This document shows positions 2,498-61,013 of a DNA stretch of 64,000 nucleotides, one piece after another (position 1 is the stretch's first letter; each line of letters begins with the position of its first letter). A program made the translations under genes and the position numbers. Where the stretch lies: the NCBI GenBank assembly GCA_963844965.1, contig CAWJQC010000004.1:32001-96000 (forward strand), written 5' to 3'. Under the pieces are notes generated by a model. The model had not been told where the DNA came from, made no database searches, and saw nothing but the letters and a program-made list of their open reading frames with translations. This DNA is from an uncultured bacterium (GTDB taxonomy: Bacteria; Patescibacteriota; Minisyncoccia; UBA6257; 2-01-FULL-56-20).

Positions 2498-2770
2498 ATG
2501 GCCAAGAAAGACCTGCATCCCCAATATTATCCCGCCGCCAAGGTGCACTGCGCCTGCGGAAACACTTTCACAGTTGGCTCAACCAAACCCGAGATTCAGG
2601 TTGAAATCTGCCACAAGTGCCACCCGTTCTATACCGGCGAAGAAAAACTGATAGATACCGCTGGACGCGTGGAGAAGTTTAAGATACGACGGGCCAAAGC
2701 AGTCACGGCTCCCAAGAAAAAGCCCCGACGCGCCCGAGCAACGGAGGACAAGAAGGAACATCGGAAATAA
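2498..2770 (+). CDS. rpmE: 50S ribosomal protein L31 (Zn-ribbon type).
   Basis: [12 protein letters not shown]...CACGNTF...[10 protein letters not shown]...[12 protein letters not shown]. Confidence 0.9.
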
Positions 2771-2813
2771 TCCCCCTACACATTGTTTGAATTTTGACAA
2801 TGTGTAGGGAAAA
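2771..2813. repeat. CCCCTACACATT palindromic hairpin, copy B, immediately after the rpmE stop.
   Basis: tccccctacacattg-tttgaatttt-gacaatgtgtaggg. Confidence 0.6.
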
Positions 2814-2829
2814 CCAAGGAAACAAGGAA

Positions 2830-2861
2830 GCGGCCTCTACGTGAGGCCGCTTCGCGTTCTT
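2830..2861. terminator. GC hairpin terminator between convergent rpmE and the histidine kinase.
   Basis: gcggcctc-tacgt-gaggccgc followed by ttcgcgttctt. Confidence 0.45.
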
Positions 2862-2955
2862 GCTCGGATAAAAATCGGTCGTATTGCAAACTGTCCGATA
2901 TTTGTAAATCGGCTGCCCGCCACAATCGGCTGACCTCAAAAACGCGAAACTATTT

Positions 2956-3717
2956 CTAACCGACCTTCGGCAACGAGAAACGGAATGTTGAACCTTTACC
3001 TTCCCCCTCGCTTTCGGCCGAAATCTTCCCGCCATGCGCCTCAATAATGCTCTTAGTTATATGGGGCCCGATGCCCGAACCCATGATTTCGTTCCTCACG
3101 CGCTTATCGCGGACATATTCTCTGAAGTTCAGCGGATTCACGCCCGGATCAAAGCCAATGCCGGAATCTTTAACCATGAAGACCGCCTCGCCGTCCTTTT
3201 CTTCCACTCTCACGCCTACGAATCCCTCGGGGGTGTATTTGATAGCGTTGTCAATGAGATTTCTGATGGCGTGCTTCAGCTCCCGCGGGTCAGCGTTCAC
3301 GAAAATATCCCTCGCCGACGCGCTGAACGTCAGATCAATTTCTTGAACGTCGGCGAGCGGTCGCAAACCTTCAACCACGTCTTTTGCCAAACCCACCAGA
3401 TCGGTTTTTGAAAATTCGTACTCCATTTTTCCCTCTTCAACTTTTCTCAAATCAACCATGTTGGTTACGGTTTCAACGAGGTCGTCGGTCGTGGTTTCAA
3501 TTTTCCCGAGAGTTTCTTTCGCTTTCTCGTCTATAACTCCGCACAAGCCCTCACGCAGCAAGGTTGCATAACCTTTTATGACCGCGAGGGGAGTTTTCAT
3601 TTCGTGGGAAGCAATCGCAATAAGCCGGGTGCCGAAGCGATTGGCCTCTTCAAGTTTGCGCCGCATTTGTTCAAGTTCATCCGCAAGTTCCTGCAAGCGG
3701 GTATTAATGTCAGCCAT
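2956..3717 (-). CDS. Sensor histidine kinase (HisKA + HATPase_c) with no transmembrane segment.
   Basis: H-box SHEMKTPLAVIKGYATLL, and the ATPase G-boxes DSGIGF / GSGIGPHI. Confidence 0.8.
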   Translation of the reverse strand: MADINTRLQELADELEQMRRKLEEANRFGTRLIAIASHEMKTPLAVIKGYATLLREGLCGVIDEKAKETLGKIETTTDDLVETVTNMVDLRKVEEGKMEYEFSKTDLVGLAKDVVEGLRPLADVQEIDLTFSASARDIFVNADPRELKHAIRNLIDNAIKYTPEGFVGVRVEEKDGEAVFMVKDSGIGFDPGVNPLNFREYVRDKRVRNEIMGSGIGPHITKSIIEAHGGKISAESEGEGKGSTFRFSLPKVG

Positions 3718-3822
3718 ATTAAAATTCTAACATTGCGCCCAGAAATTTTGTAGATGCACTTGAAAAGCATGCCGCTTCCGTGTTATATTCGGATAAGCTA
3801 ATTTACATCTCTGTGAGGCGCG

Positions 3823-4665
3823 ATGAATTTTATGTATCGGATGGGGTTTTCGGCAATTCTGAAAGTGCGGAATGTCTACCTTGCCTTCCCAAGATGCTAT
3901 AAAGCGGCTGCCGAATGCTACGAAAAAATCGTTTGGTGGCACCTGCTCGTGGCGCCTATCATTCTCATAATCGGCGGCTTCGTGTGGGGCATCGTGACCG
4001 GCGGCCTTTTGTGGGGTCTGAAATGCGGCTCCGGCGTTTTCTTCCTGTTCTTCGAAGCCGAGGGCGTAATCGGATTCTGGGCAAAAGTCATCGGCATCTC
4101 GTTACGTGGGGCGGTGGTCCTCTCCATATTGTGCAGTTCTTACGATATCTTCTGTTTGTTCATACTATCAAACAAAGCGGTGGCTGGCCTAAGGCGTTCG
4201 GTAAAAGCCAACCCGGAAAAGGCCGGCGACTCCTGGACTGACAAATTTTTCTTTCTTGTGCGGGCATTTGAATCCCGCGCTCACGTGGCGGCCGCTGAGG
4301 TTGAAGACAAGGTAAAAAATCTGGAAACTGAATCGGACAACTCGCGGTTCGCCAGAGCATACCGTTGGTTCAAAAGACGCAAGTTACTTTACGCGACGCT
4401 TCCGATCTTCGGATTCGTAGTCGGCGCCCTTTTCATCGGCGTCCCCCTGTCCGTTGTCTGTGGGCTGAATCAGTTGCTTTCCTTTGTCCTAATCGTATCC
4501 GGCAATGCACTGAAGATGATCGCGGCCGGCTATACCGTCTTAAAGATAGGAATGTTCGGCGTCATTCTTTCAGTTGTAGCTGTGGCGTTCGCCGAAAAGG
4601 CAATCAAGTTCTGCATTAGAAAATGGCGGCATCGCCATCTGCAACATAAGAAGGGCCTCGCTTAG
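3823..4665 (+). CDS. Hypothetical polytopic membrane protein.
   Basis: 280-aa ORF with several hydrophobic helices. No recognisable family. Confidence 0.4.
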   Translation: MNFMYRMGFSAILKVRNVYLAFPRCYKAAAECYEKIVWWHLLVAPIILIIGGFVWGIVTGGLLWGLKCGSGVFFLFFEAEGVIGFWAKVIGISLRGAVVLSILCSSYDIFCLFILSNKAVAGLRRSVKANPEKAGDSWTDKFFFLVRAFESRAHVAAAEVEDKVKNLETESDNSRFARAYRWFKRRKLLYATLPIFGFVVGALFIGVPLSVVCGLNQLLSFVLIVSGNALKMIAAGYTVLKIGMFGVILSVVAVAFAEKAIKFCIRKWRHRHLQHKKGLA

Positions 4666-5337: not shown

Positions 5338-6057
5338 ATGACAAATAAAGTTATTTTGGAAATAAGGGCGGGGGCGGGAGGTGACGAAGCCGCTATCTTT
5401 GCGGGCGATCTCGCGCGAATGTACCAACGCTACGCCGCAAGGCGCGGCTGGGGATTCGCGACGCTTGACTCAAACGAAACATCGCTCGGCGGCTATAAAA
5501 CATTTATCGCCGAGATAAAAGGAGAAAATGTTTATGACGCGCTGAAAAACGAATCTGGCGTCCATCGCGTCCAGCGCGTGCCGAAAACCGAGAAATCGGG
5601 ACGTGTACACACCTCAACCGCTTCAGTGGCTGTGATTCCCGAAGTGGAAGCAAAACTGGTTGATGTCAACCCGAACGACTTGGAAGTGACATTTTCTCGC
5701 GCCGGCGGCCCCGGCGGCCAGAACGTCAACAAGGTTGAAACGGCCGTAAGGATCTTGCACAAACCGACCGGCATCGTCGTTTCCTGCCGTGAAGAACGCT
5801 CACAGAACGCCAACCGCGAAAAAGCTCTGGAAATTCTGCGCGCGAAATTATTCGAACTTCAGCGCGAACAAGCAGCCGGCAAAGTAAGCGAAATCCGCCG
5901 CGAACAAATCGGCTCCGCCGAACGCGCGGAAAAGATACGCACATATAATTTCCCAGAAGACAGAATCACCGACCACCGCCTCGGAAAGAAGTTTCACAAC
6001 ATAGAGAAAATTCTTGACGGGGATTTGGAACCGATAGTCAAGGCTTTCCAAAAATAA
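5338..6057 (+). CDS. Class-I peptide chain release factor with domains 2-4 only (GGQ present, PKT tripeptide). N-terminal domain 1 is absent.
   Basis: [17 protein letters not shown]...[19 protein letters not shown]. Only ~210 nt upstream is free, so there is no room for domain 1. Confidence 0.75.
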
Positions 6058-6067
6058 AACGAGGCGG

Positions 6068-6409
6068 TTATTTCCGCCTCTTGACCTTCTTGGTTTTGGA
6101 ATCCCGCCTTCCCGCGGGCTCCGGCTCCGTCCTACCGCCAAAATACATCCGGCTGTCAATTTCAATCCTGGTGCCGCATCCCGGGCAGGGAACATAATGA
6201 ACAATAAAATCCTGTGTGCCGACAGCGCCTCCGTCAACTGTCTGGATTTGCGCGACCACCTTTTTTCCATCATTTTTCTCAAGTTGGAATTGGCATGCGC
6301 AAATACTGTTGTTGCATACCCAAACTTTTTCCAGCCAATCAGGCCAAACGCTCTTAGATTTCCATTCTCTTACTACGTGCACGCGCCGACTAACCAGTAT
6401 TTTCATTGC
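6068..6409 (-). CDS. Small zinc-ribbon protein (CPGC...C...C), hypothetical.
   Basis: ORF with CNNSICAC ... CPGCGTRIE. The start is taken at the internal MKILVS. Confidence 0.3.
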   Translation of the reverse strand, partial: AMKILVSRRVHVVREWKSKSVWPDWLEKVWVCNNSICACQFQLEKNDGKKVVAQIQTVDGGAVGTQDFIVHYVPCPGCGTRIEIDSRMYFGGRTEPEPAGRRDSKTKKVKRRK

Positions 6410-6500
6410 TAACCTCCTTCCTTCTTGTGAAATATCACTCAACCACATGACAAGGCAACTGAGAATACAATATTGCACAATTATTAAAAAGTCAAATGAG

Positions 6501-6998
6501 CTACCGCGCCTTGCTGATTAATCCGTCCACATCTTTCAATTCTTCCCAAATGCCGTCAATCAAATCATATTTCTTAGCCTCTTCAAGCGTTACCCAGACG
6601 TGATCGGTCAGGTCCTTGCACAATTTTACTTCACCGCTTTTGTAAAACGTCCAGTATGACAGCGTGACCACGGGGAAACCATCAGGGCGGATGAAAACCA
6701 AATCCGTCAAATATTGCGGCTTCTCTATTTCCAGACCGACCTCCTCGCGCACCTCCTTGCGCACGAGCCAATCCATAATGCCGTAGTATTGAAAATATTC
6801 CGTCTCGTGCGGCAGTTTCTCGTATTCATGAACCACAAGTTTCCCGCCCGGCACGGTCCATTTATTCGGGAACGCTTTCTCGTGCGGCGCGCGCTTGGCG
6901 ATCAAAAACCGCGCAACGTCCTGAGCCGAAGGCGAAGGATCTCTTTTGACGATAATCGCTGTCGCGGTTACGAAATGCAGGCGAGGGTCAGTGTCCAT
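6501..6998 (-). CDS. Nudix hydrolase.
   Basis: Nudix box G-x5-E-x7-REVREEVGLE. Confidence 0.7.
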   Translation of the reverse strand: MDTDPRLHFVTATAIIVKRDPSPSAQDVARFLIAKRAPHEKAFPNKWTVPGGKLVVHEYEKLPHETEYFQYYGIMDWLVRKEVREEVGLEIEKPQYLTDLVFIRPDGFPVVTLSYWTFYKSGEVKLCKDLTDHVWVTLEEAKKYDLIDGIWEELKDVDGLISKAR

Positions 6999-7115
6999 TT
7001 CAATTTAATTCCCGACATTTACGAAAGCTCAAAGGGGTAAATTATTCTTCTTCCCTGTGTTCTAAAACTTTCTCGCGCGCCGCTGCAAGTCTACTCGCCT
7101 CTTCGGTTTGGCGAA

Positions 7116-7514
7116 TCACATCTTTCCGACGATCTCTTCGATTTTCACTAAACCCTTCCCAACCATTTCCAGTCTATTCGCCAAAGCACCGACATTCTTC
7201 ATCTCTGCCTCGATTCTCTCAGTTTCTTCTCCTTTTTCCGCATTTTTATATTTCCCCTTAAGCCCCTCTTCCAACTTACGAAGTCCTTCACAAATCGTAT
7301 GCATGTCATGCTCAGTAAAATATTTACCAAGATCTTTTGACATCGAATCTGTTTTTATCATCTCTCTCTTAGCCTCTGCTTTCTGGTCGCCCGTTGCAAT
7401 AAGTCGTCCTTCTCTGTCAACCTCGGCTCCTCCTTTTACCATCTCGGCCTCTTGTATTCTGGCGCTTGCTATTTCCTCCGGCGTCATTCTTGGGAATTCT
7501 TCTGATTTTGGCAT
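7116..7514 (-). CDS. Hypothetical charged/coiled-coil protein.
   Basis: 132-aa ORF, K/E-rich. Confidence 0.4.
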   Translation of the reverse strand: MPKSEEFPRMTPEEIASARIQEAEMVKGGAEVDREGRLIATGDQKAEAKREMIKTDSMSKDLGKYFTEHDMHTICEGLRKLEEGLKGKYKNAEKGEETERIEAEMKNVGALANRLEMVGKGLVKIEEIVGKM

Positions 7515-7564: not shown

Positions 7565-7665
7565 CAATATACAAATGCATGCAAATGATACAAATAATAC
7601 GAATTAATTATTAGTATCCATTCGTATCATTAGTACCATTTGTATATTTGTATCATAGTTTCAAA
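7565..7665. repeat. AT-rich array of TACAAAT/ATTTGTA half-sites (inverted and direct).
   Basis: atacaaatgcatgcaaatgatacaaataat ... ccatttgtatatttgtatcat. Confidence 0.5.
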
Positions 7666-24614: not shown

Positions 24615-24676
24615 GTATCACGCAACATGAAACATGTAGCAGTTAAAACGGTGCTACATGTTTCGTGTTATATGTT

Positions 24677-26125
24677 TCATTTTTTCGGACGCATCAGCGG
24701 GAAAATCACGGTCTCGCGCACGGGCTTGTCCATCAAAATCGCGAATAGGCGCTCTGACATGCCGAAACCGGCGGCGGGCGGCATACCGTACTCCATAGCT
24801 TCCAAGTAATCCTCGTCCAGCCGCTGGGCTTCATTGTCCCCTTCCGCACGCAACTTCATCTGCTCCTCAAACCGCGCGCGCTGGTCAAGGGGGTCATTCA
24901 GTTCCGAAAAACCATTTCCCACTTCCGTGCCACAGGCCACTACCTGAAACCGTTCCGCGACTTTCGGATTTTTCCGACTGCGTTTGGCCAAGGGTACTAA
25001 TTCAACCGGTGGGTCAACCAAAAAGCACGGCTCAATCAGTTTGGGTCGGATGGCTTTCTTATATATCAGATCAATAAGGCGTCCTCTGCCGAGATTTTCC
25101 TCCGGCTGCAGGCCGAAAGAACGTGCCGTGATAAAAAGCTCTTTGCGCGTGGCAACCGTCGGGTCAAGCCCGGCAGCTTTCTTAAATTCCTCCACGTAAT
25201 TCACTTTCGGCCACCTCTTCCCCCAGTTTATTTTTTTGCCGCCGAAGGTCACGGTAAAACCGCCGCAGGTTTTTTTGACAACGGCTTTGTACATTTTTTC
25301 CACGGACGCCATCATGTCGTTGTAATCGGCGTAAGCCCAGTAGTATTCCATGTGCGTGTAGTCCTGCAGATGTTCCTTGTCTATGCCTTCGTTGCGGAAC
25401 ACGCGGCCAATCTCAAAGACCCTTTCAAAACCGGCGACGAGAAGTTTTTTCAAAGACAGTTCCATGGATATGCGCAGGTAGAAGTCAACATCCAGCGCAT
25501 TGTGATGCGTTTTGAACGGCTCGGCGTCCGCGCCTCCGGGAACGCTCTCCAGAACGGGCGTTTCCACTTCCAAAAATCCTTCGCCCTTAAGATAATTGCG
25601 GATAGTTTCCCAAAAAACGGCTTTCTTCTCAAAAAGCACCTTTGCTTCCGGATTCATAAGCAAATCCAGGTATCGTTTCCGCAGGCGCGTTTCAATGTCT
25701 TCCAGCCCGTACCACTCGCTCGGCAACGGACGCAGGGATTTCGCCAGTATTTTAAGCTCTTTAACTTCCAGACTTTCCTCTCCTTTTTTCGTCTTGAACA
25801 ACGAGCCACCCGCGTAAATAAAATCGCCGATGTCCAAAACGGATTTCCAAAATTCAAAATCCGGCAAATTGTCTTTCTTCAAAACCAGCTGCAGCTTGCC
25901 CGTGGCGTCTGCCAGATCAAGAAACACGATATTCCCCTGGTCGCGCGAGCCCAAAATGCGCCCGACCAAAGAAATCTTCTTCCGGGATTTCGCCAGCGCG
26001 TTGAATCTTTTCCGCGCCTCGGCAATCGCAAGCGTCCGCTTCGCCTCCGGCGGATACGGGTCGAGCTTCACTTTCTTTATTTCTTCCAGCTTCTTCAACC
26101 GCTCTTTGATAAGATCGTCAAGCAT
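24677..26125 (-). CDS. lysS: Lysyl-tRNA synthetase (class II).
   Basis: N-terminal OB anticodon-binding domain plus a class II core. ...FEIGRVFRNEGID.... Confidence 0.85.
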   Translation of the reverse strand: MLDDLIKERLKKLEEIKKVKLDPYPPEAKRTLAIAEARKRFNALAKSRKKISLVGRILGSRDQGNIVFLDLADATGKLQLVLKKDNLPDFEFWKSVLDIGDFIYAGGSLFKTKKGEESLEVKELKILAKSLRPLPSEWYGLEDIETRLRKRYLDLLMNPEAKVLFEKKAVFWETIRNYLKGEGFLEVETPVLESVPGGADAEPFKTHHNALDVDFYLRISMELSLKKLLVAGFERVFEIGRVFRNEGIDKEHLQDYTHMEYYWAYADYNDMMASVEKMYKAVVKKTCGGFTVTFGGKKINWGKRWPKVNYVEEFKKAAGLDPTVATRKELFITARSFGLQPEENLGRGRLIDLIYKKAIRPKLIEPCFLVDPPVELVPLAKRSRKNPKVAERFQVVACGTEVGNGFSELNDPLDQRARFEEQMKLRAEGDNEAQRLDEDYLEAMEYGMPPAAGFGMSERLFAILMDKPVRETVIFPLMRPKK

Positions 26126-39806: not shown

Positions 39807-39882
39807 AATGATAAATTTTCAATTTCCAATTTTCCAATTTCCAAACGTTTGGAAATTCTGAACTTGGAATTATTTTCTCCGT

Positions 39883-49894: not shown

Positions 49895-49980
49895 TTGCCA
49901 TTGTGGAATGATTGTGGACGGCGAAAGGGGGCAGGATTTGGACAAATCATAGATAGATAGCATGAATTAATTTATTACTT

Positions 49981-50040
49981 ATTAACGGATTAACGAATTG
50001 CGAATTGAATCCGATGCGTTAATACGTTAATTCGTTAATT
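49981..50040. repeat. Array of TTAACG half-sites (three direct 8-nt repeats plus inverted copies) upstream of the tuf promoter.
   Basis: attaacggattaacgaattgcgaattgaatccgatgcgttaatacgttaattcgttaatt. Confidence 0.5.
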
Positions 50041-50050
50041 TTAATAGAAT

Positions 50051-51044: not shown

Positions 51045-53149
51045 TTACCGTTTTTTGCCTTCGATAATCAACTGCGCAATGTTCTGCGGCACTGGCTCAT
51101 AATGGTCAAATTCCATCGTGAACGCTCCCCTGCCTTGCGTCATGGAACGCAACTCGGTCGCGTAGCCGAACATTTCCGCGAGCGGAACTTTGGCGTCAAT
51201 CACTTTCACGTTGGGCCGGTCGGAAATTTCCTCAATCCTGCCGCGCTTGGAGTTCAAGTTGCCGCTCACCTCGCCCAAAAATTCTATCGGGATGATAACC
51301 TGAAGCTTCATTATCGGCTCCAATATGACCGGCTTCGCGCGCTTCGCCGCTTCCTGCAGGGCGATGGAGCCAGCAATTTTGAAAGCCGCCTCCGACGAGT
51401 CAACTTCATGGAAAGAGCCGTCATAGAGCGAAACTTCAAGGTCGGTCATCGGGTAGTGGGCAACGACCCCCTTACTCAATGCTTCCACCACACCTTTTTC
51501 CACCGCCGGGATGAATTCGTTCGGAATGATCCCTCCCTGATATCGTCTATGAAAACAAATCCCTTGCCGCGCTCCAAGGACTTCACGCGCAGCCAGACAT
51601 GTCCGTATTGTCCGCGGCCGCCGGATTGCCTGATATATTTGCCTTCCGCCTCCGCTTCGCCCATAATCGTTTCTTTATAGGCAACCTGCGGCCGCCCCAC
51701 CGAACCCTCAACACCGAACTCCCGCTTCATCCTGTCAACAATAATTTCCAGGTGCAACTCGCCCATGCCAGAAATAATCGTCTCGCCAGTTTCCAGGTCG
51801 CCCGCCACGCGGAAAGTCGGGTCTTCTTCCGCCAAGCGGTGCAGGGCAATGCTCATTTTTTCCTGGTCGGCTTTCGTCTTCGGCTCAATGCGAATGCCGA
51901 TCACCGGCTCGGGGAATATGATCTTCTCAAGCACTATCGGCGCGTCGGGACTGCAAAGCGTGTCGCCGGTCGTCGTATTCTTCAAACCGACGATCGCCGC
52001 GATATCTCCGGCATGCACTTCCTCCATTTCTTCGCGGTGGTTGGCGTGCATCCGCACCACGCGGCCGACACGTTCCTGCTGGTCCTTCTTGGAATTCAAA
52101 ACGTACGTGCCGCGCTTCAAAACGCCGGAATAATTCCGGAAATAGGTTAAAGTGCCGACGTACGGGTCTGTCGCAACCTTGAAAGCCAGCGCCGAGAACG
52201 GCTCTTCGTCCTTGGGGTGCCGCACGATATCGGCGCCGCTCTTCGGGTCAATGCCCTTAACCGGAGGAAGGTCCGTCGGCGCGGGCAAATATTCCACAAC
52301 CGAGTCAAGCATAAATTGCACGCCTTTGTTTTTCAGGGCCGAACCGCAAAGCACCGGCACAATTTTGTTGGCAATAACGGCTTTGCGCAAAACGCGGCGC
52401 AAATCTTCAATGTCAAGCTCAGTACCATCCAAATACTTGGTCATCAAGGCATCGTCATTGTCCACAATGCGTTCCACAAGTTCATGCCGCGCCTTCTTCA
52501 CGTGCACTTTCATATTTTCCGGCATCGGAATTTCTGTAATCTTTTCGCCATGTTCACCCTCCGAGCCGTACGCCTTTTCGGTTAAGAGGTCTATCATTCC
52601 CACGAATTCACCCTCAAGGCCGATGTTCAACTGCAAAGGCAGTGCGTTCGGCGTGAGCCGTTCTTTGATTGACTGCAAACTTTTTTCAAAGCTCGCACCC
52701 AAGCGGTCAAGTTTGTTAATAAAGCAAATCCGCGGCACGTGGTACTCATCGGCATAGCGCCAGTTCGTTTCCGACTGCGGCTCAACACCTGCGACGCCAT
52801 CAAAGACGACAACCGCGCCGTCCAAAACGCGGAGCGAACGCTTCACCTCCACCGTAAAGTCAATGTGCCCCGGCGTGTCAATCAAATTTATCATATGCTC
52901 AAATTTTTTGTCGCCCTTGCGGTAAGTCGGAATCCAGAACGCCGTCGTTGCGGCGGAAGTAATCGTAATTCCCCTCTCACGTTCCTGCTCCATCCAATCC
53001 ATCACCGTGTCGCCCGTGTGCACCTCGCCGATTTTGTGACTGACGCCCGTATAAAAAAGCACCCGTTCGCTCACGGTGGTTTTGCCGGCATCTATATGGG
53101 CGATGATGCCGATGTTACGGACCTTCTCGACAGGATACATTCTAGGCAT
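51045..53149 (-). CDS. fusA: Elongation factor G, with a 1-nt frameshift near 51520 splitting it into two ORFs.
   Basis: [25 protein letters not shown].... The C-terminal ORF 51045-51503 continues ...[27 protein letters not shown]. Confidence 0.85.
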
Positions 53150-55729: not shown

Positions 55730-55829
55730 ATCAACAATAATATCCGAAAACCGCGGTCTTTGCCAATTAAGAAAAAACAAATTAAAATGAGCATGTCGCC
55801 CTCGTGGTGAAACTTGCCCTCCCACCTTT

Positions 55830-55902
55830 GTCCCTGTAGCTCAACGGATAGAGCGTGTGGCTTCGAACCACAAGGTTGCAGGTTCAAATCCTGCCAGGGA
55901 CG
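55830..55902 (+). tRNA. tRNA-Arg (UCG).
   Basis: GTCCCTGTAGCTCAACGGATAGAGCGTGTGGCTTCGAACCACAAGGTTGCAGGTTCAAATCCTGCCAGGGACG. Confidence 0.85.
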
Positions 55903-55928
55903 CAAAGGTGGGAGGGTGAAGATATCAT

Positions 55929-55978
55929 ATGTGGCTTCGAACCACAGGTTCCAGGTTCGAGTCCTGGCGAGGGCACAC
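55929..55978 (+). other. 5'-truncated copy of a tRNA-Arg(UCG) paralog (anticodon arm + T-arm + acceptor 3' strand). Candidate att site.
   Basis: The 17-nt tgtggcttcgaaccaca is identical to the intact gene. The T-arm/acceptor is ccaggttcgagtcctggcgagggca. Confidence 0.6.
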
Positions 55979-56072
55979 ACAACATTTCGTATCGCGGCAT
56001 CGTGGGGGCCGACGCTCTAGCGCGACCCCGAGAGGCCTACCGATACGGAATATCGTCCTCCTTATTTCTCTA

Positions 56073-56324
56073 TTAAGAGCCGGCAAAAATACTTTTGATA
56101 AGGCTTGTAATGCCGCCTGCTATCAGCACGATCACAAAACCGACTGCCGCATACGTAAGGGTCTTCTTCCCTTTCGAAAATTTTTCAGGATCGCCAGCCG
56201 CCGTCATCATTTGAAACCCGCCGACAAGCACCATTATACTTGTGAGCGGCGCTGCAATATCGTAAAAAAGAAATCCCGCCACACTATTCGCGACGGACAC
56301 CAAGCTGCCCCCCCATTCGTACAA
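56073..56324 (-). CDS. Small 2-TM membrane protein (pilin/TrbC-like is speculative).
   Basis: 83-aa ORF with two hydrophobic helices. Confidence 0.35.
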   Translation of the reverse strand: MYEWGGSLVSVANSVAGFLFYDIAAPLTSIMVLVGGFQMMTAAGDPEKFSKGKKTLTYAAVGFVIVLIAGGITSLIKSIFAGS

Positions 56325-56491
56325 TTTGGATCGAACGGATTAAAAAGTTGGTTGGGAGGGCACGCGGCAAAAGCTAACTTCGCGACGGTTAAGGCGCTGA
56401 CTGTTATTAAAATCTTTGTTGTGCGGCGGATAATATGCATATGGATTATTATAGCATACGAGATAGCGTGGCAGAAGCCCATTTTGTTTAG

Positions 56492-57886
56492 CTATTTCTG
56501 CAAGCTCAGAATTTTATTCCTGAACGTCAACTTACTCTTGAAGCAAGATAGCAATTCGCGTTTCTCGACCGTGCTGCCCTTTTTGAGAAGATATTTTGCG
56601 TACGTTTTAAGGTCAATTTCTTTAGTGGCCGCTTTCGATCCTTCTCCCAAGACATCGTTCGCGAATTTGCGATATCGTTCCATCTCGTCTTCGAATTTCT
56701 TCTGCATCCCAATCTCACTGATATCCATCTCGTCAATGATAGCGAGAAGTTGAGCGATCAATTCCTCTTCGCGAATGTATCCGCACTTGCAATCCTTATC
56801 TTTCGAGCGTGAGCATCCATAGTACACGTACCGCGCCGTCGTTCCATCCTTGTGCGCCTTATATTTCTCGCACGCACTGATGCCCGATCCGCATAGGCCG
56901 CACGAGATCAGTTTCGTAAACGAAAATTCCTTTATCTCCGACCTGATGACAAAATCTCGGTGCAGCTGCTCCTGTACTTTATCGAACAGCTCCCGCGAAA
57001 TGATTGCTTCGTGCTTGCCGCTGTACCAGTTACCGCTCTTCAGTGGATACTCAAAGATGCCGCAGTAAAATGGATTTTTGAGGATGATATAAATATTGGA
57101 TAACGAAAGCACTTTCCCATTCTTTGTTCTGAATTTGATTTCCGACTTCAGCCAATGATAAAGCTTCCGGCCCGACCATTGTTCGTCGGCGACTTTCTGG
57201 AGCATTTGCTTGATGACGGGCGCTCGCAGGGGATCAATGATAACTTCACAAGGACGGTCGGTGCTCTTCTCGTTAAGATACCCTGTCGGTGCGATAGACG
57301 GACGCAAACCTTGTTCGCACCGCATCCGTAATCCGCGCTTCACGTTTTCCGATTTGTTATCATTCTCAAGTTTCGCTTGGCTGCACAAAATCATCAACAT
57401 GAATTTCTCGCTCGGCGAGTTCGTGAATTTCTGGCTGAAGGTTCTGATCTCGATAAGTAATTTTTGATCCATCAAGTCCACCAAGCCGCCAAGGTCGCCC
57501 GCGTTGCGGCTCAAGCGATCCGGCGCCCATGTAAGGATACCGTTGAATTCGCCGGAACGAATATCAATAAGCAACTCGTTAAAAATTTTTCGCTGGCCGA
57601 CAGCTTTTGCGGAATGGCTTTCCTTTCTAACTTCGGCGATCTCAAGGTTATCGCGCTCGGCGATTTTCAGCATCTCCTTTATCTGACTATCAATGGAAAG
57701 CACTTGCTGTTCCTCGCTCTCCGTACTTTTCCTCGCATAGAGGCAGTATTTTATTTTTATCGCTTCGGCCTTTGTCGCAGAAACGCCCGACTGATCCCAG
57801 CCCTTTGGTATATTTGTTATTTTCTCCATACCTAAGGGATGCCGCAACGGCGGAAGGAGTCCAGAGCATCCTTGTCGGTAACTCAA
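56492..57886 (-). CDS. Large serine recombinase (resolvase domain + recombinase domain + zinc ribbon).
   Basis: YARKSTESEEQ...SIDSQ catalytic region. C-terminal CGLCGS...YYGC. Confidence 0.8.
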   Translation of the reverse strand: MSYRQGCSGLLPPLRHPLGMEKITNIPKGWDQSGVSATKAEAIKIKYCLYARKSTESEEQQVLSIDSQIKEMLKIAERDNLEIAEVRKESHSAKAVGQRKIFNELLIDIRSGEFNGILTWAPDRLSRNAGDLGGLVDLMDQKLLIEIRTFSQKFTNSPSEKFMLMILCSQAKLENDNKSENVKRGLRMRCEQGLRPSIAPTGYLNEKSTDRPCEVIIDPLRAPVIKQMLQKVADEQWSGRKLYHWLKSEIKFRTKNGKVLSLSNIYIILKNPFYCGIFEYPLKSGNWYSGKHEAIISRELFDKVQEQLHRDFVIRSEIKEFSFTKLISCGLCGSGISACEKYKAHKDGTTARYVYYGCSRSKDKDCKCGYIREEELIAQLLAIIDEMDISEIGMQKKFEDEMERYRKFANDVLGEGSKAATKEIDLKTYAKYLLKKGSTVEKRELLSCFKSKLTFRNKILSLQK

Positions 57887-57985
57887 AACTCGATATCAGG
57901 CGACGAAGGGGCAAAGAAGGCAAGCAGAGTGATTTCCCCAGCCACCCTCTTTAAGACCATTTATAAACGAGCTATAATAATTCTA

Positions 57986-58951
57986 ATGTTCAGTACCAAT
58001 GCGCGACGGGTAATGTGTGTCGTTGCAGGTTTGATTTTGACTTCGCTCGCTTGGATCGGATGCGCGAATTATTTCAACTGGTACGCCGACACAATCGGTC
58101 CCGTGGCCTGGTTTGGCACCCTGTTCCTATTTGCCGCAGCAGGAGTCGGCGCCGGTCTGCTCTTCGAAAAATCGACCAGGGCTCATTATCAGTCTGCAAT
58201 GACGGCAAATCCCCAACTTAAGGAACGAATGGAAACTACTCTCGGAAGGCGCCTCAAGTTTGGCTACGTGCTTGCCGGGCTTTATGTCGCCTATAGGCTT
58301 TTCGGATATTATCTGTTTTTTGTTCTCGGCTTCTCTTTATCTCCAGCGGCCCATCTTCAACTGATTCTTTCGGCGGTCGTTGAGGCGGTTGTCGCCTTAG
58401 TGTGTTTGTTGCTTTATTGGGAGCGCGGAGAAGATGCCAGTACGGCGAATATAAAAAAGCATTTGCTTGTCTATGTTATTTTCTTCTTCGTTCTCGCAGT
58501 GGTTGACGGTGTCGCACTGCTTGTCTTGAAGCCCGCTTCGGCGGTAGTTCAAACACCCGCAACTCTCGAATCCGCGCTCGAAGCATTTTCCGCCGAGGAA
58601 TTTTCCGGGGCAGCAGCAAAAGGGGCGCAAGCGCTACAAGTAAAAGATATGGTCGGGATAGCTTCGGCGCTCCAGAAGATCAATGCTCATTTTAACCAAT
58701 CATTAACCAGCGCGGATCTTTATGACATGCGGTACACCATTAATTGGGGCTTGAATGAAGCAATTGCATATTACCAATTCGAGGCCGACGATCAATCCAT
58801 TTACGCTCTTCAGCTTACCGAAAATCTTGCGACCAGCAATATTGCCGAGAGTTATTATTCGTTTCCGGCAGGTAGCACCTCCGCTCTAACCGGACAGAGG
58901 TATCTCTTCGTGGCAAACGGATTCAAACGCGGCCGAAACTTTGTTCCTTGA
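57986..58951 (+). CDS. Hypothetical 4-TM membrane protein with a C-terminal soluble domain.
   Basis: Start taken at MFSTNARRVMCVVAGLILT. Confidence 0.4.
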   Translation: MFSTNARRVMCVVAGLILTSLAWIGCANYFNWYADTIGPVAWFGTLFLFAAAGVGAGLLFEKSTRAHYQSAMTANPQLKERMETTLGRRLKFGYVLAGLYVAYRLFGYYLFFVLGFSLSPAAHLQLILSAVVEAVVALVCLLLYWERGEDASTANIKKHLLVYVIFFFVLAVVDGVALLVLKPASAVVQTPATLESALEAFSAEEFSGAAAKGAQALQVKDMVGIASALQKINAHFNQSLTSADLYDMRYTINWGLNEAIAYYQFEADDQSIYALQLTENLATSNIAESYYSFPAGSTSALTGQRYLFVANGFKRGRNFVP

Positions 58952-59130
58952 TACTGCAGGTGCTTATCTCAACCTACCTATGCAATCTCCGATTATGAAC
59001 GAAGACCTTTATTATCCTTTAACGGCATCTGCTCCTTCGTGGACAGTGTCCGTCCTCTTTACGAGCACTACGGAGGAGGGACAACAGCAAGTTCACGCTC
59101 TATAATACCTTTGACGCGAATACCGAGCGG

Positions 59131-59526
59131 GTGACGACGAGTACTTACGTTCCCTCCGGAAACTATTTGCCCTTGTCACCACAATCGCCATCCGTGTCGA
59201 TGAACGTTGCTCCGCCTCCCTCAAATTCCTCCCTGAAAATAATTTCTCCTGCCAACGGACAGAAATTGAAGCAGGGGTCAACATACACGATTAGCTGGCA
59301 GTCGTCTGGTGATTTCAATTTTGTCGTCGGGAATATCGTCGCTCCCGTTCCGGGCGAAGGGGGTGTAGGAATATTCCAAGCCCCCGCGACTTCAAGCCGC
59401 TATAGCTGGACCGTGCCGACCGGCTTCCCACCTGGGATGTATAAACTGGGGCTTGCGGGCAGCGATCAAGATTTTGTGAATCATAATTTTGCCTCGTCCA
59501 GTGTTTCAATCTACATCATTCCGTAG
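59131..59526 (+). CDS. Small protein with a Kre9/KNH-like Ser/Thr-rich-family domain.
   Basis: YTISWQSSGDFNFVVGNIV...SRYSWTVPTGFPPGMYKLGL. Confidence 0.4.
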   Translation: MTTSTYVPSGNYLPLSPQSPSVSMNVAPPPSNSSLKIISPANGQKLKQGSTYTISWQSSGDFNFVVGNIVAPVPGEGGVGIFQAPATSSRYSWTVPTGFPPGMYKLGLAGSDQDFVNHNFASSSVSIYIIP

Positions 59527-59649
59527 TAAAACTTATTTAAGATGAGACGCGGCCTTGGGACACCCTTTTAGTGCCTCATTTGTCTCATTTGCATAAAAAA
59601 GCCTTATTTTATGGGCATCGATTTTTCGGAATGAGACACTGCTTTGTAT

Positions 59650-59985
59650 AAATCGGACACGTCCAGAATGGCATTTCTGTGTCCGATTTGTCCGATTTGC
59701 CTCCAAAATGTTACACACCACAAAGTGCAAAAGTTGTGTAACATTTGTAACATTTTGAGGAAAAGCGGGGGGTTGGAACATGGGAATGGGACACGAAAAA
59801 TCGACCTCTTGTGTCCCATTTGTTCCATTTTGTAGAAATGAGCCCTGCTGCGTTACGTTTGCCGCGTTACATTCCGAACGCTCAGAAATCTTTGATTTAT
59901 CTACCTAACAGGACAGCTCCCCAAAAAAGTGCCGCCCTCTCAACTTTTCACATCGCGTTACATTTGTTACATGTTACATTTGATC
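59650..59985. repeat. Iteron-like cluster: several families of short tandem and inverted repeats in an AT-rich intergenic region.
   Basis: AAATCGGACAC-18 nt-GTGTCCGATTT. (TCCGATTTG)x2. TGTTACACA/TGTGTAACA IR. (GTAACATTT)x2. (TCCCATTTG/TTCCATTTT). (GTTACATTT)x3 at 59956-59980. Confidence 0.6.
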
Positions 59986-60188
59986 CCTCCGAAAACCGCG
60001 ACCGTGAGCCTTCCAAGGGAAATTTGGGGTCGTCCTCAAAAACCCTTATACTGATTGCACAGGGAAAGTCCGCATCCGCGAGGGGGCACAACAAAACTAT
60101 ATCTTTTTAGTTACCGCACGGTTGTCGTCGAGACGCGTGAAAAACAAAAAAGGAGCTTGCAGAGCTCCTCTATCTAACTCAACCTAAC

Positions 60189-61013
60189 TCAACGGGATGC
60201 GGCGGAAACATGGGACAGCACGTCCGCAATGGCGTTCACGAGAACTCTTAATCCGTCTCTCCGGTAGAAAATTTCCTCACCGTCTGCCGGTCCGAAGCGA
60301 TCAATGTGGCGGTGAGATTTTTTCCTTATGAAACGACTGTTCGAAAGAGCGTGTAAGTTTACCCTTATGTTCTCAATCATTTTCTCGTGATAAGGGTTCT
60401 CCCTGCCATGCCATTGCTCACAAAGGGCAATCTCGCCTTCGGCGGTCGTAAAAAACAACGACCGAAGGAAGTAATTAAAGTGACGCTCAACGGCAGTCTC
60501 AACCAATCTTTGCAACTCCGGCCCGCTTTTCGCGCTTCCCAAGACCGGTATCGCCGAGATATCGTTACCATACTTCTTTTTGGCCAAGTGGTCCCAGGCA
60601 TAACCAAGAGCGATGAGCCAACGTTTGCCGTGGACGGTGGCAAGGAACACGTCGCCGTACTTCATATATAACCTTTCCGAATTATTGCCGTTGACGGCAT
60701 GGTCGTCAACGATCGCGTAGACAGATGACGGAATGGGCAACTCGATTTTCCTACGGGGACGCAATCTATAATCATCCCAAAGTCCGTGAAATACCCCGTA
60801 GGTAAGTTCCTCAGGCGTAATCAACCGCCTGAACGGATGGACAATAGAACGAAGAGCACCGTGCTTTCCTTCCAGCACTTCCTTCAGGCGTTTTCTAAAA
60901 ATTTTCATCCGACCCCCAATCAAAAGATTTTCACTCAAACAACTGCAAGCAGTATAACGAAATTTTTTGAATTTGGCAAATTTGATATTTTTCGCCGCAG
61001 AAGCCAACGCCAC
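60189..61013 (-). CDS. Hypothetical protein adjacent to the iteron region.
   Basis: 274-aa ORF, no recognised motif. Confidence 0.4.
   Translation of the reverse strand: MALASAAKNIKFAKFKKFRYTACSCLSENLLIGGRMKIFRKRLKEVLEGKHGALRSIVHPFRRLITPEELTYGVFHGLWDDYRLRPRRKIELPIPSSVYAIVDDHAVNGNNSERLYMKYGDVFLATVHGKRWLIALGYAWDHLAKKKYGNDISAIPVLGSAKSGPELQRLVETAVERHFNYFLRSLFFTTAEGEIALCEQWHGRENPYHEKMIENIRVNLHALSNSRFIRKKSHRHIDRFGPADGEEIFYRRDGLRVLVNAIADVLSHVSAASR

Follow-up and report, generated by a model that had tools for sequence, protein, structure and literature searches.

An array of co-varying repeat modules near the end of a putative large-serine-recombinase element in a patescibacterial genome

The locus and its repeat array

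The DNA analysed here is a 64,000-nt stretch, referred to below as the window, of contig CAWJQC010000004.1 (assembly GCA_963844965.1, positions 32,001 to 96,000 of the forward strand), from an uncultured member of the Patescibacteria, or candidate phyla radiation (CPR). At about 59540-60092 of the window lies a cluster of short repeats that comprises six modules, M1 to M6. The cluster occupies one end of an island that, judged by its sequence, is an integrative element of ~4.1 kb encoding a large serine recombinase (LSR). We place this element at about 55968-60092, adjoining a tRNA-Arg gene, because the window shares the landmarks of a 24-locus alignment.

The LSR gene (56492-57829, minus strand) encodes a protein of 445 aa with Resolvase, Recombinase and Zn_ribbon_recom domains that matches phrog_95, an integrase family. 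Two cargo genes on the opposite strand follow. The first encodes a 321-aa multi-pass membrane protein with no family match (57986-58951, plus strand) and the second a 131-aa protein with weak Ig-like matches (59131-59526, plus strand). The second gene has a promoter-like site ahead of it at 59078-59106 and converges on the array, which is 1.7 kb from the LSR gene. The interval separating the two cargo genes holds no module, and a cassette model with one module per cargo gene was rejected on this ground. The array region is non-coding and extends from the stop codon of the 131-aa gene (59526, plus strand) towards an intrinsic terminator at 60140-60171 (minus strand). This terminator belongs to a minus-strand gene for a 239-aa protein and lies outside the element, between that gene and the array. 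Small open reading frames (ORFs) across the array had no family matches, and the indels that distinguish homologous arrays ignore reading frame.

The modules were read on the minus strand, designated the R orientation. In four of them the grammar is AAAT-NNN-AC, AAAT-NNN-ACAC, a spacer of 16-20 nt and GTGT-NNN-ATTT. Each such module thus consists of two tandem 9-mers and one inverted copy, and has its own core triplet (GAG, CGG, GTT or GGG/GGA). An earlier note on this DNA had listed repeats between 59650 and 59985. All of the listed repeats are present at their coordinates, and they are no loose mixture but resolve into modules of one grammar, each with its own core. The extent given for the cluster did not hold: it starts at 59540, with a degenerate GAG module that had been missed, and runs on as non-coding sequence to ~60092.

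That first module, M1 (59540-59591, minus strand), reads AGATGAGACGC-N20-GTGCCTCATTT-GTCTCATTTG on the plus strand and begins 14 nt past the end of the 131-aa gene. Its homologues are the canonical GAG module found across the CPR and the M1 of three homologous arrays (L012, L032 and L128; 'L' numbers denote motif-bearing loci from the genome-collection scan described below and related metagenome contigs). An extra inverted GAG copy, the 'B0' arm (GAATGAGACAC on the plus strand; 59629-59639, minus strand), lies 38 nt from the M1 tandem and would supply M1 with a second, back-to-back hairpin. The same B0..A1A2..B layout is present in many loci, in which a further inverted copy lies 20-40 nt beyond the tandem. 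M2, M3 and M4 do not have it. The tandem may therefore represent the inner arms of two back-to-back hairpins.

M2 (core CGG; 59650-59698, minus strand) reads AAATCGGACAC-N18-GTGTCCGATTT-GTCCGATTT: a palindrome, AAATCGGACAC-N18-GTGTCCGATTT, spans 59650-59689, and two copies of GTCCGATTT stand in tandem at 59681-59698. M3 (core GTT; 59706-59756, minus strand) reads AAATGTTACACA-N17-TGTGTAACATTT-GTAACATTT, with the inverted pair AAATGTTACACA / TGTGTAACATTT at 59706-59746 and two tandem copies of GTAACATTT at 59738-59755. The arms of both modules pair perfectly. M4 (cores GGG/GGA; 59784-59831, minus strand) reads GAATGGGACAC-N16-GTGTCCCATTT-GTTCCATTT and includes the GTCCCATTT / GTTCCATTT pair at 59813-59830. 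M2, M3 and M4 fit the free-core pattern of the family, with an inverted copy after 12-24 nt and concordant cores, exactly; M1 fits it with 3 mismatches.

The two remaining modules consist of direct copies. M5 (59850-59873, minus strand; core GTA on that strand) comprises GCGTTACGTTT and GCCGCGTTACATT without an inverted partner, and is kept in L012, L032 and L128. M6 (59954-59982, minus strand), also of the GTA type, reads CGCGTTACATTT-GTTACAT-GTTACATTT. It holds exact copies of GTTACATTT at 59957 and 59973 with the shortened GTTACAT in between, and near-copies of the same repeat (GTTACGTTT at 59852, GTTACATT at 59866) occur in M5. M6 occupies the position at which other genomes hold their single module, and its 24-nt core is identical in six sequences, those of the window, L012, L032, L127, L128 and L129.

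Chance does not explain these repeats. The pattern AAATNNNACAAATNNNACAC-N12-24-GTGTNNNATT, with free cores, matched the array three times and was not found in 100 shuffles, and the relaxed tandem pattern GTNNNATTTGTNNNATTT, allowing at most one mismatch, gave 8 matches against 0.7 expected. Of the 64 single AAATNNNAC/GTNNNATTT sites in the window, 11 fall in the one kilobase of the array. According to folding predictions, 59530-59990 folds better than every shuffled sequence on both strands (z = -4.4 and -4.3).

The array corresponds to no annotated RNA family. With gathering and with permissive thresholds alike, Rfam 15 had no family for the module, whether in the window or in related loci, and only tRNAs passed in the window. 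The best sub-threshold matches in the array were MIR9481 (25.6 bits against a threshold of 130) and ssNA-helicase RNA (21.3 against 41.5). The latter match (E = 2.4; 59965-60021, minus strand) overlaps the end of M6 and was taken as chance. A structured RNA over the ~110 nt from the element end to the module was considered and rejected: RNAalifold, applied to 25 sequences, returned the module hairpin only, and single-sequence folds were inconsistent. A sigma-70 scan found no promoter-like site within the array, and a terminator scan, which detected sites at 60149-60171 and 59246-59265, found none in the array.

Co-variation of the module cores

To follow the cores beyond the window, we considered strict matches to the module in which the cores were unconstrained. 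Seven non-GAG modules had all three copies concordant (GGT, CTG, GTT, GGG twice, GGA and TGC). In permutations, 0.054 such modules were expected and no more than 2 were obtained in 5000 runs. This result is the independent evidence for co-variation.

An unbiased scan of the loci for tandem-plus-inverted 9-mers recovered 57 more modules, nearly all belonging to this family. In a second scan, for which the conserved AC of each 9-mer was the anchor, 62 distinct modules with at least 22 core types were collected. In this set, 92.7% of arm positions were paired, compared with 81.9% after shuffling, and 72 double-sided changes were observed against 13.8 expected, counts that are partly circular because the set required at least 9 of 11 paired positions. 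Slid controls were 31-55% paired. Compensated changes were also found at nominally constant positions (AAAG/CTTT, TAAT/ATTA and ACGC/GCGT, among others). The core triplets themselves are mostly GNN (GAG, GGG, GGA, GGC, GGT, GTT, GTA and GCA, in loci L002-L120). The likeness of the U-NNN-A core context to an anticodon loop is probably a coincidence.

Arrays homologous to that of the window were present in L012, L032 and L128, the last a metagenome contig. No similarity between their flanking coding sequence and that of the window was detected. The order of the array, M1, the M5/M6 block and many loops are kept in all three. The cores at the intervening positions differ. The module at position 3 has GTT/AAC/AAC in the window and GGC/GCC/GCC in L012, L032 and L128. 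The module at position 2 is CGG/CCG/CCG in the window, in a mismatched state in L012, and GGG/CCC in L032. In L032 and L128, the CGG module, recognisable from its loop, is placed after M6. Modules thus are conserved units that retain internal complementarity as they change or move. Together, the co-variation, the differences between modules and the homologous arrays argue for self-pairing and not for a single initiator or centromere protein acting on identical iterons. Self-pairing would also account for neighbouring stems being kept different.

The genes upstream of the array in L128 (reverse strand) are unlike those of the window: an XRE-type helix-turn-helix gene, a 165-aa ORF and a ParB-N/DNA-methylase gene, which are typical mobile-element cargo.

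Distribution of the module

To determine how widely the module occurs, we scanned a genome collection, using one genome per species and treating the cores as N. The module was found in at least 119 loci, nearly all in metagenome-assembled genomes of Patescibacteria/CPR. Among the matches listed, the carriers included Saccharibacteria, Parcubacteria groups, Uhrbacteria, Peregrinibacteria, Berkelbacteria and others. A few module contigs are labelled otherwise and are possibly mis-binned. The commonest core is GAG (AAATGAGACAAATGAGACAC ... GTGTCTCATT). A viral collection of 2.9 million contigs gave 6 matches, of which 1 was genuine, and a phage origin of the module was ruled out on the basis of this single match. 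Searches of the literature for the tandem sequence and for serine-recombinase elements of the CPR found nothing relevant in searchable sources; a motif match in a paper on Tn7 proved to be a primer only. As far as Rfam and the searchable literature show, the module family is undescribed.

The window contains a second occurrence. A further family member, AAATGATAC AAATAATAC ... TCGTATCATTA, lies at 7583-7641, between an adenylate-kinase-like gene and a 132-aa ORF, and both of its arms carry several copies. All recombinase genes are distant from it; the module can therefore stand alone in an ordinary chromosomal spacer. Unrelated tandem-plus-inverted repeats also occur in housekeeping spacers of the window: at 39815-39870 (rplB/rpsS), at 24615-24690, between genes for a class-II aminoacyl-tRNA synthetase and a cytidylyltransferase, and at 49975-50045, upstream of tuf. 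Such a layout may be a general trait of intergenic sequence in this genome.

Association with large serine recombinases

Homologues of the LSR in the window, with 50-69% identity, were encoded in 19 of the 119 listed loci, always on the R strand of the motif. An LSR gene lay within 5 kb downstream of the motif in 10 of the 41 loci with at least 5 kb of sequence on that side, and upstream in 1 of 35. Seven minimal copies of the element, 1.7 kb in length, were identified in L007, L020, L075 (two copies, at 2523-4200 and 5486-7132), L089, L090 and L114. Their homology starts abruptly at TGGCGGTGTACACGCGTTCAGTGCC, 145 nt ahead of the motif, and runs as far as the LSR stop codon, which places the module within the mobile unit, with the left end on one side and the LSR gene on the other. 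These copies have unrelated flanks, an intrinsic terminator forming the left one in several cases. The motif is ~100-145 bp from the element end and, in the minimal elements, 90-160 bp upstream of the LSR start codon.

The window conforms to this arrangement: as in the rest of the family, the module position is inside a tRNA-3'-like end, and the LSR gene is downstream on the same strand. A conserved subterminal non-coding region (59983-60092, minus strand) aligned with 24 other loci and contains the boundary seen in the 1.7-kb copies. Proceeding inward, its landmarks are the tRNA-3'-end-like sequence at 60058-60092 (minus strand), a TAAGGG..TTTT box, a CTCGGTCGGGG-like box (CCGCGACCGTGAG; 59996-60008, minus strand) and the module position, here held by M6. 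The first of these is taken as the left end of the element; its equivalent in the 1.7-kb copies is the sharp homology boundary. The region usually has one module, and module number is expanded in the window and a few related genomes. By position and sequence, then, the array is the expanded subterminal module set of a CPR-wide family of LSR elements, with six copies here in place of the usual one.

At the other end of the island, a partial tRNA-Arg(TCG) gene extending from the anticodon arm to the 3' end (55915-55967, plus strand) lies just past the complete tRNA-Arg gene (55830-55903) and is likely the junction. Its resemblance to 60058-60103 is weak and scores no better than background. The complete tRNA-Arg(TCG) gene is bracketed by an inverted repeat of 13/14 nt (55816-55829 / 55904-55917), and the second copy, which holds only the 3' two-thirds, begins 11 nt past the first. 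The arrangement at 55816-55967 looks like an integration scar at this tRNA gene.

The left end (60058-60092 in the window; also L025, L049, L064, L091, L109, L118 and others) resembles the complement of a tRNA 3' end, having a T-arm-like hairpin with a co-varying stem followed by 7-8 nt and then GCCA. The CTCGGTCGGGG box, ~85 nt further inward, repeats part of it. A hidden tRNA or tmRNA at this landmark was rejected: ARAGORN gave no credible candidate even under relaxed settings, there was no acceptor-stem partner, and the sequence bore no likeness to tRNAs of the same loci.

Some copies are incomplete. L036 (3605-3724) and L055 (2241-2435) retain an intact module and only the last 40-65 codons of the LSR gene, from which it follows that these elements decay. 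The idea that solo modules in general are internal-deletion derivatives was rejected, as only these two loci retain a C-terminal remnant of the LSR.

Proposed function of the hairpins

Starting from the observed anatomy, distribution, LSR linkage and co-variation, we infer how the hairpins would fold in vivo, on which strand, and to what end. We propose, with a probability of roughly 0.4, that the array is a folded cis-element at the border of the LSR element that acts as a barrier to, or control point for, transcripts. The arms of each module would pair to form an 11-bp stem with a loop of 16-20 nt, and the tandem copy would act as an alternative arm or supply a second hairpin with one. The differing cores would stop neighbouring modules from cross-pairing. 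Folded in this manner, the hairpins could terminate the transcript of the cargo gene ending 14 nt away, or protect it, and could block outside transcription from entering the element and its LSR gene. The conserved flanks, AAAT..ACAC / GTGT..ATTT, might be the feature by which a shared factor recognises the hairpins.

The genes surrounding the module are consistent with this proposal. As in the window, most loci have an opposite-strand gene that ends 0-50 nt from the motif. Its stop codon is the TGA within AAATGAGAC in seven loci, and the next gene on its strand starts 45-680 nt further on. The abutting genes are diverse, encoding transporters, methyltransferases, reverse transcriptases, CPSase, DHODH and Hsp20, a range in keeping with cargo of larger islands. 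In 29 loci a gene on the same strand as the motif starts 21-200 nt downstream; these genes include seven for LSRs and others for a Zn-finger protein family. In the GAG modules, the loop begins TAnAAA..GGG and the base after the 3' arm is T in 80%. G.U-type mismatches favour the LSR-sense strand by 18 to 2, and both strands of the array fold better than shuffled sequence.

Several observations weigh against a transcript-directed hairpin. The hairpins would be poor canonical terminators, having AT-rich stems, loops of 16-20 nt and no clean U-tract, and none was flagged by the scan. The conservation of the flanks and of the loop start across phyla points to a sequence-specific partner, because pure structure would not require either to be conserved. 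The recurrence of the cores GAG, GTT, GGG, GGC and CGG in distant genomes could likewise reflect specific recognition and not free drift. RNAalifold found no conserved structure besides the module hairpin. In the set of 62 modules, for which the pair counts are partly circular as noted above, the outer tandem copy co-varies as the inner one does, and one hairpin alone needs no such co-variation. Finally, the asymmetry of the G.U-type mismatches is weak (~p = 0.02) and derives from related sequences, and the strand so favoured differs from the one whose gene ends abut the motif.

Alternative explanations

The foremost alternative, which we consider rather unlikely, is that the modules act as duplex DNA: accessory or regulatory sites bound by the LSR or by a partner (a directionality factor, for instance, or a repressor). 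Recombination or LSR expression would be controlled through this binding; res, site II of Sin and the arm-type sites of lambda attP would be analogues. Conservation of the flanking bases extends to every module type and across phyla, and tandem copies 9 bp apart together with an inverted copy are a typical layout for recombinase and repressor sites. The distances from the element end (~100-145 bp) and, in minimal elements, from the LSR start (90-160 bp) are fixed, linkage to the LSR gene is directional, and core types recur in distant genomes. The half-sites of small serine resolvases start with TGTC, and the module arms read GTGTCYNATT. To our knowledge, however, large serine recombinases do not use accessory sites, which we count against this explanation. 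Arrays of 4-6 modules with differing cores also sit poorly with an island that has one candidate DNA-binding protein. A protein that reads the core would have to come in several cognate versions; were the core ignored, the copies should drift independently, contrary to the data. In addition, the module of the same family at 7583-7641 is distant from recombinase genes. Two features of res-type sites give a mixed picture. The module is directly upstream of the LSR gene in the minimal elements, and in the window two opposite-strand cargo genes intervene; the modules share the AAAT..ACAC flanks, and their cores differ between modules and co-vary within them.

A related proposal, quite unlikely in our estimation, is that the modules are structure-specific sites. 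The LSR or a partner would grip the conserved base and top of the hairpin, and the 3-nt core would be an address that is matched between copies. Were this so, the modules would be a serine-recombinase counterpart of integron attC biology, in which a core code sets which sites pair, recombine or are co-regulated. An array would in that case be a docking or regulatory platform with many addresses, and the reshuffling of modules between genomes would be explained.

It is similarly doubtful that the array is functionless, a neutral relic of element ends with repeats made and homogenised by replication slippage and hairpin repair. The unrelated tandem-plus-inverted clusters in the housekeeping spacers of this genome would speak for such a mutational tendency, and many motif loci have no recombinase, while some retain only fragments of one. 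By contrast, the module sequence is conserved across CPR phyla, and the module keeps a constant position with respect to the element end and to gene stops. Array order and loops are kept in four genomes without detected similarity in the flanking coding sequence, and the M6 core is identical in six sequences.

We hold it to be more doubtful still that the canonical module is the promoter-operator of the LSR gene. The loop would contain a -10-like box. Transcripts entering from outside would fold and be terminated or masked, and those started in the loop would lack the 5' arm, following the logic of IS10 and IS50. The loop start, T(71%) A(66%) n A(64%) a a followed by GGG, agrees with this, as do the 29 loci with a same-strand gene start 21-200 nt downstream (seven of them LSR genes, others of the Zn-finger family). 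Nevertheless, there is no -35 sequence at workable spacing, the sigma-70 scan was empty in the array, and M1 is the only module of the window with a -10-like loop. In most loci, including the window, the next gene on that side runs in the opposite direction.

Guide RNAs of the TIGR (tandem interspaced guide RNA) type, or another small-RNA array, are very improbable. TIGR arrays are CPR-enriched tandem stem-loops whose stems vary within an array, and their sequences are too weakly conserved for standard annotation tools (PMC12045711; bioRxiv 10.64898/2026.09.09.750476). The repeat array shares with them the enrichment in the CPR, the tandem stem-loops and the divergence of stems within an array. 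However, a TIGR unit has, between its stem arms, two 8-12-nt spacers flanked by box C/D motifs (PMC12045711), and the loops of 16-20 nt are too short for these components and a linker. No box C/D or CUU pattern was seen in the modules by eye, in place of a formal scan. No Nop-domain protein was found: Pfam searches of the neighbours were empty, and the predicted structure of the 239-aa protein is alpha/beta and not a helical Nop fold. Moreover, homologous arrays have differing neighbour genes.

Equally remote is the reading put forward in the earlier note, of an iteron-type replication origin or partition centromere bound by the product of the adjacent gene; the density of short repeats inside the island is all that favours it. 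What survives of that proposal is a cis-acting, non-coding feature of a mobile element, in this case an LSR element; the assignment to replication or partition does not. Searches with Pfam, PHROGs, NCBIfam and PADLOC found no Rep, ParA or ParB in the island. Between 59 and 61 kb the GC content stays at 0.47-0.48, and neither an AT-rich dip nor a change in skew is seen. The repeat units are 9-11 nt, inverted as well as tandem, with differing cores, and not near-identical direct repeats of 17-22 bp as in iterons. On reading the array sequence by eye, we noticed no DnaA-box-like 9-mers. Furthermore, over 100 genomes carry the module on the chromosome, and viral contigs almost never do.

The adjacent gene does not fill the role of a binding partner either. 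The true gene spans 60189-60908 (minus strand), encodes 239 aa and stands outside the element, behind its own terminator. Its region is present in an independently assembled 2.4-kb contig (ERR10755942) with one mismatch in 2,356 nt. The gene is not beside the homologous arrays in L012, L032 and L128, and the locus of a relative, P0004, has no module array. The protein has no close homologues. An exhaustive HMMER search of 1.8 billion representatives returned 5 remote relatives, making a family of six, and sequence and profile searches of the PDB, Pfam and PADLOC were empty. A first AlphaFold model had a predicted local distance difference test score (pLDDT) of 36.7; a model based on the six sequences reached a pLDDT of 71.5 and a predicted template-modelling score of 0.75. 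The latter is alpha/beta, with no recognisable winged-helix, Rep or Nop fold, and it had no significant match in the PDB, the best Foldseek E-value being 1.0 and the best TM-score below 0.2.

Comparison with known systems

The module resembles several characterized systems in part. Like the res sites of Tn3/gamma-delta and the head-to-tail site II of Sin, it combines inverted and direct half-sites upstream of a serine recombinase gene in a mobile element. Its cores differ between modules and co-vary within them, which res subsites do not, and the enzyme is an LSR; the comparison is one of sequence only. Integron attC sites also form arrays of imperfect palindromes with a conserved framework and a variable inner stem, oriented at the 3' ends of cargo, and are read as folded single strands. 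They are, however, hairpins of 57-141 nt with R''/L''-L'/R' boxes (GTTRRRY), occur once per cassette and are served by the tyrosine integrase IntI. The module has 11-bp stems, a tandem arm copy and a serine recombinase, and no attC boxes were found.

TIGR-Tas systems are similar in their CPR-enriched tandem stem-loops with divergent stems, and differ in that Tas/Nop proteins are absent here and the loops are too short. Repetitive extragenic palindromes (REPs) and bacterial interspersed mosaic elements are likewise short palindromic units, single or clustered, right after stop codons. REPs are species-specific, high-copy and linked to RAYT transposases, whereas the module is cross-phylum, low-copy and LSR-linked. 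In IS10 and IS50, a structure near the end forms only in transcripts that enter from outside and keeps transposase levels low. Their hairpin masks the ribosome-binding site of the transposase mRNA; the modules described here, known from sequence, can be far from the LSR gene. Finally, plasmid and phage iterons share the dense, short, non-coding repeats and the mobile setting, and are otherwise identical 17-22-bp direct repeats accompanied by a rep gene and an AT-rich region, none of which the array has.

The Patescibacteria make up a large part of bacterial diversity, and their mobile elements and non-coding regulatory DNA are barely known. The present data define a family of small LSR elements with varied cargo that is spread over these phyla, and a conserved, co-varying non-coding module absent from Rfam and the searchable literature. 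The signature of the module offers a simple means of mapping the ends of elements and the borders of islands in CPR genomes. Should the hairpins control LSR expression or recombination, they would constitute a new regulatory device for LSRs, enzymes that are widely used in genome engineering. If they are insulators only, they would exemplify how tiny genomes wall off mobile DNA.

Additional observations

Genes for LOOT RNA (RF03000) are present in two motif-bearing loci, L058 (6060-6181) and L077 (3761-3879), in neither case next to the module. In the window, the gene for elongation factor G (51045-53149, minus strand) is split into two overlapping ORFs of 557 and 152 aa, which could reflect a frameshift, a sequencing error or a pseudogene.

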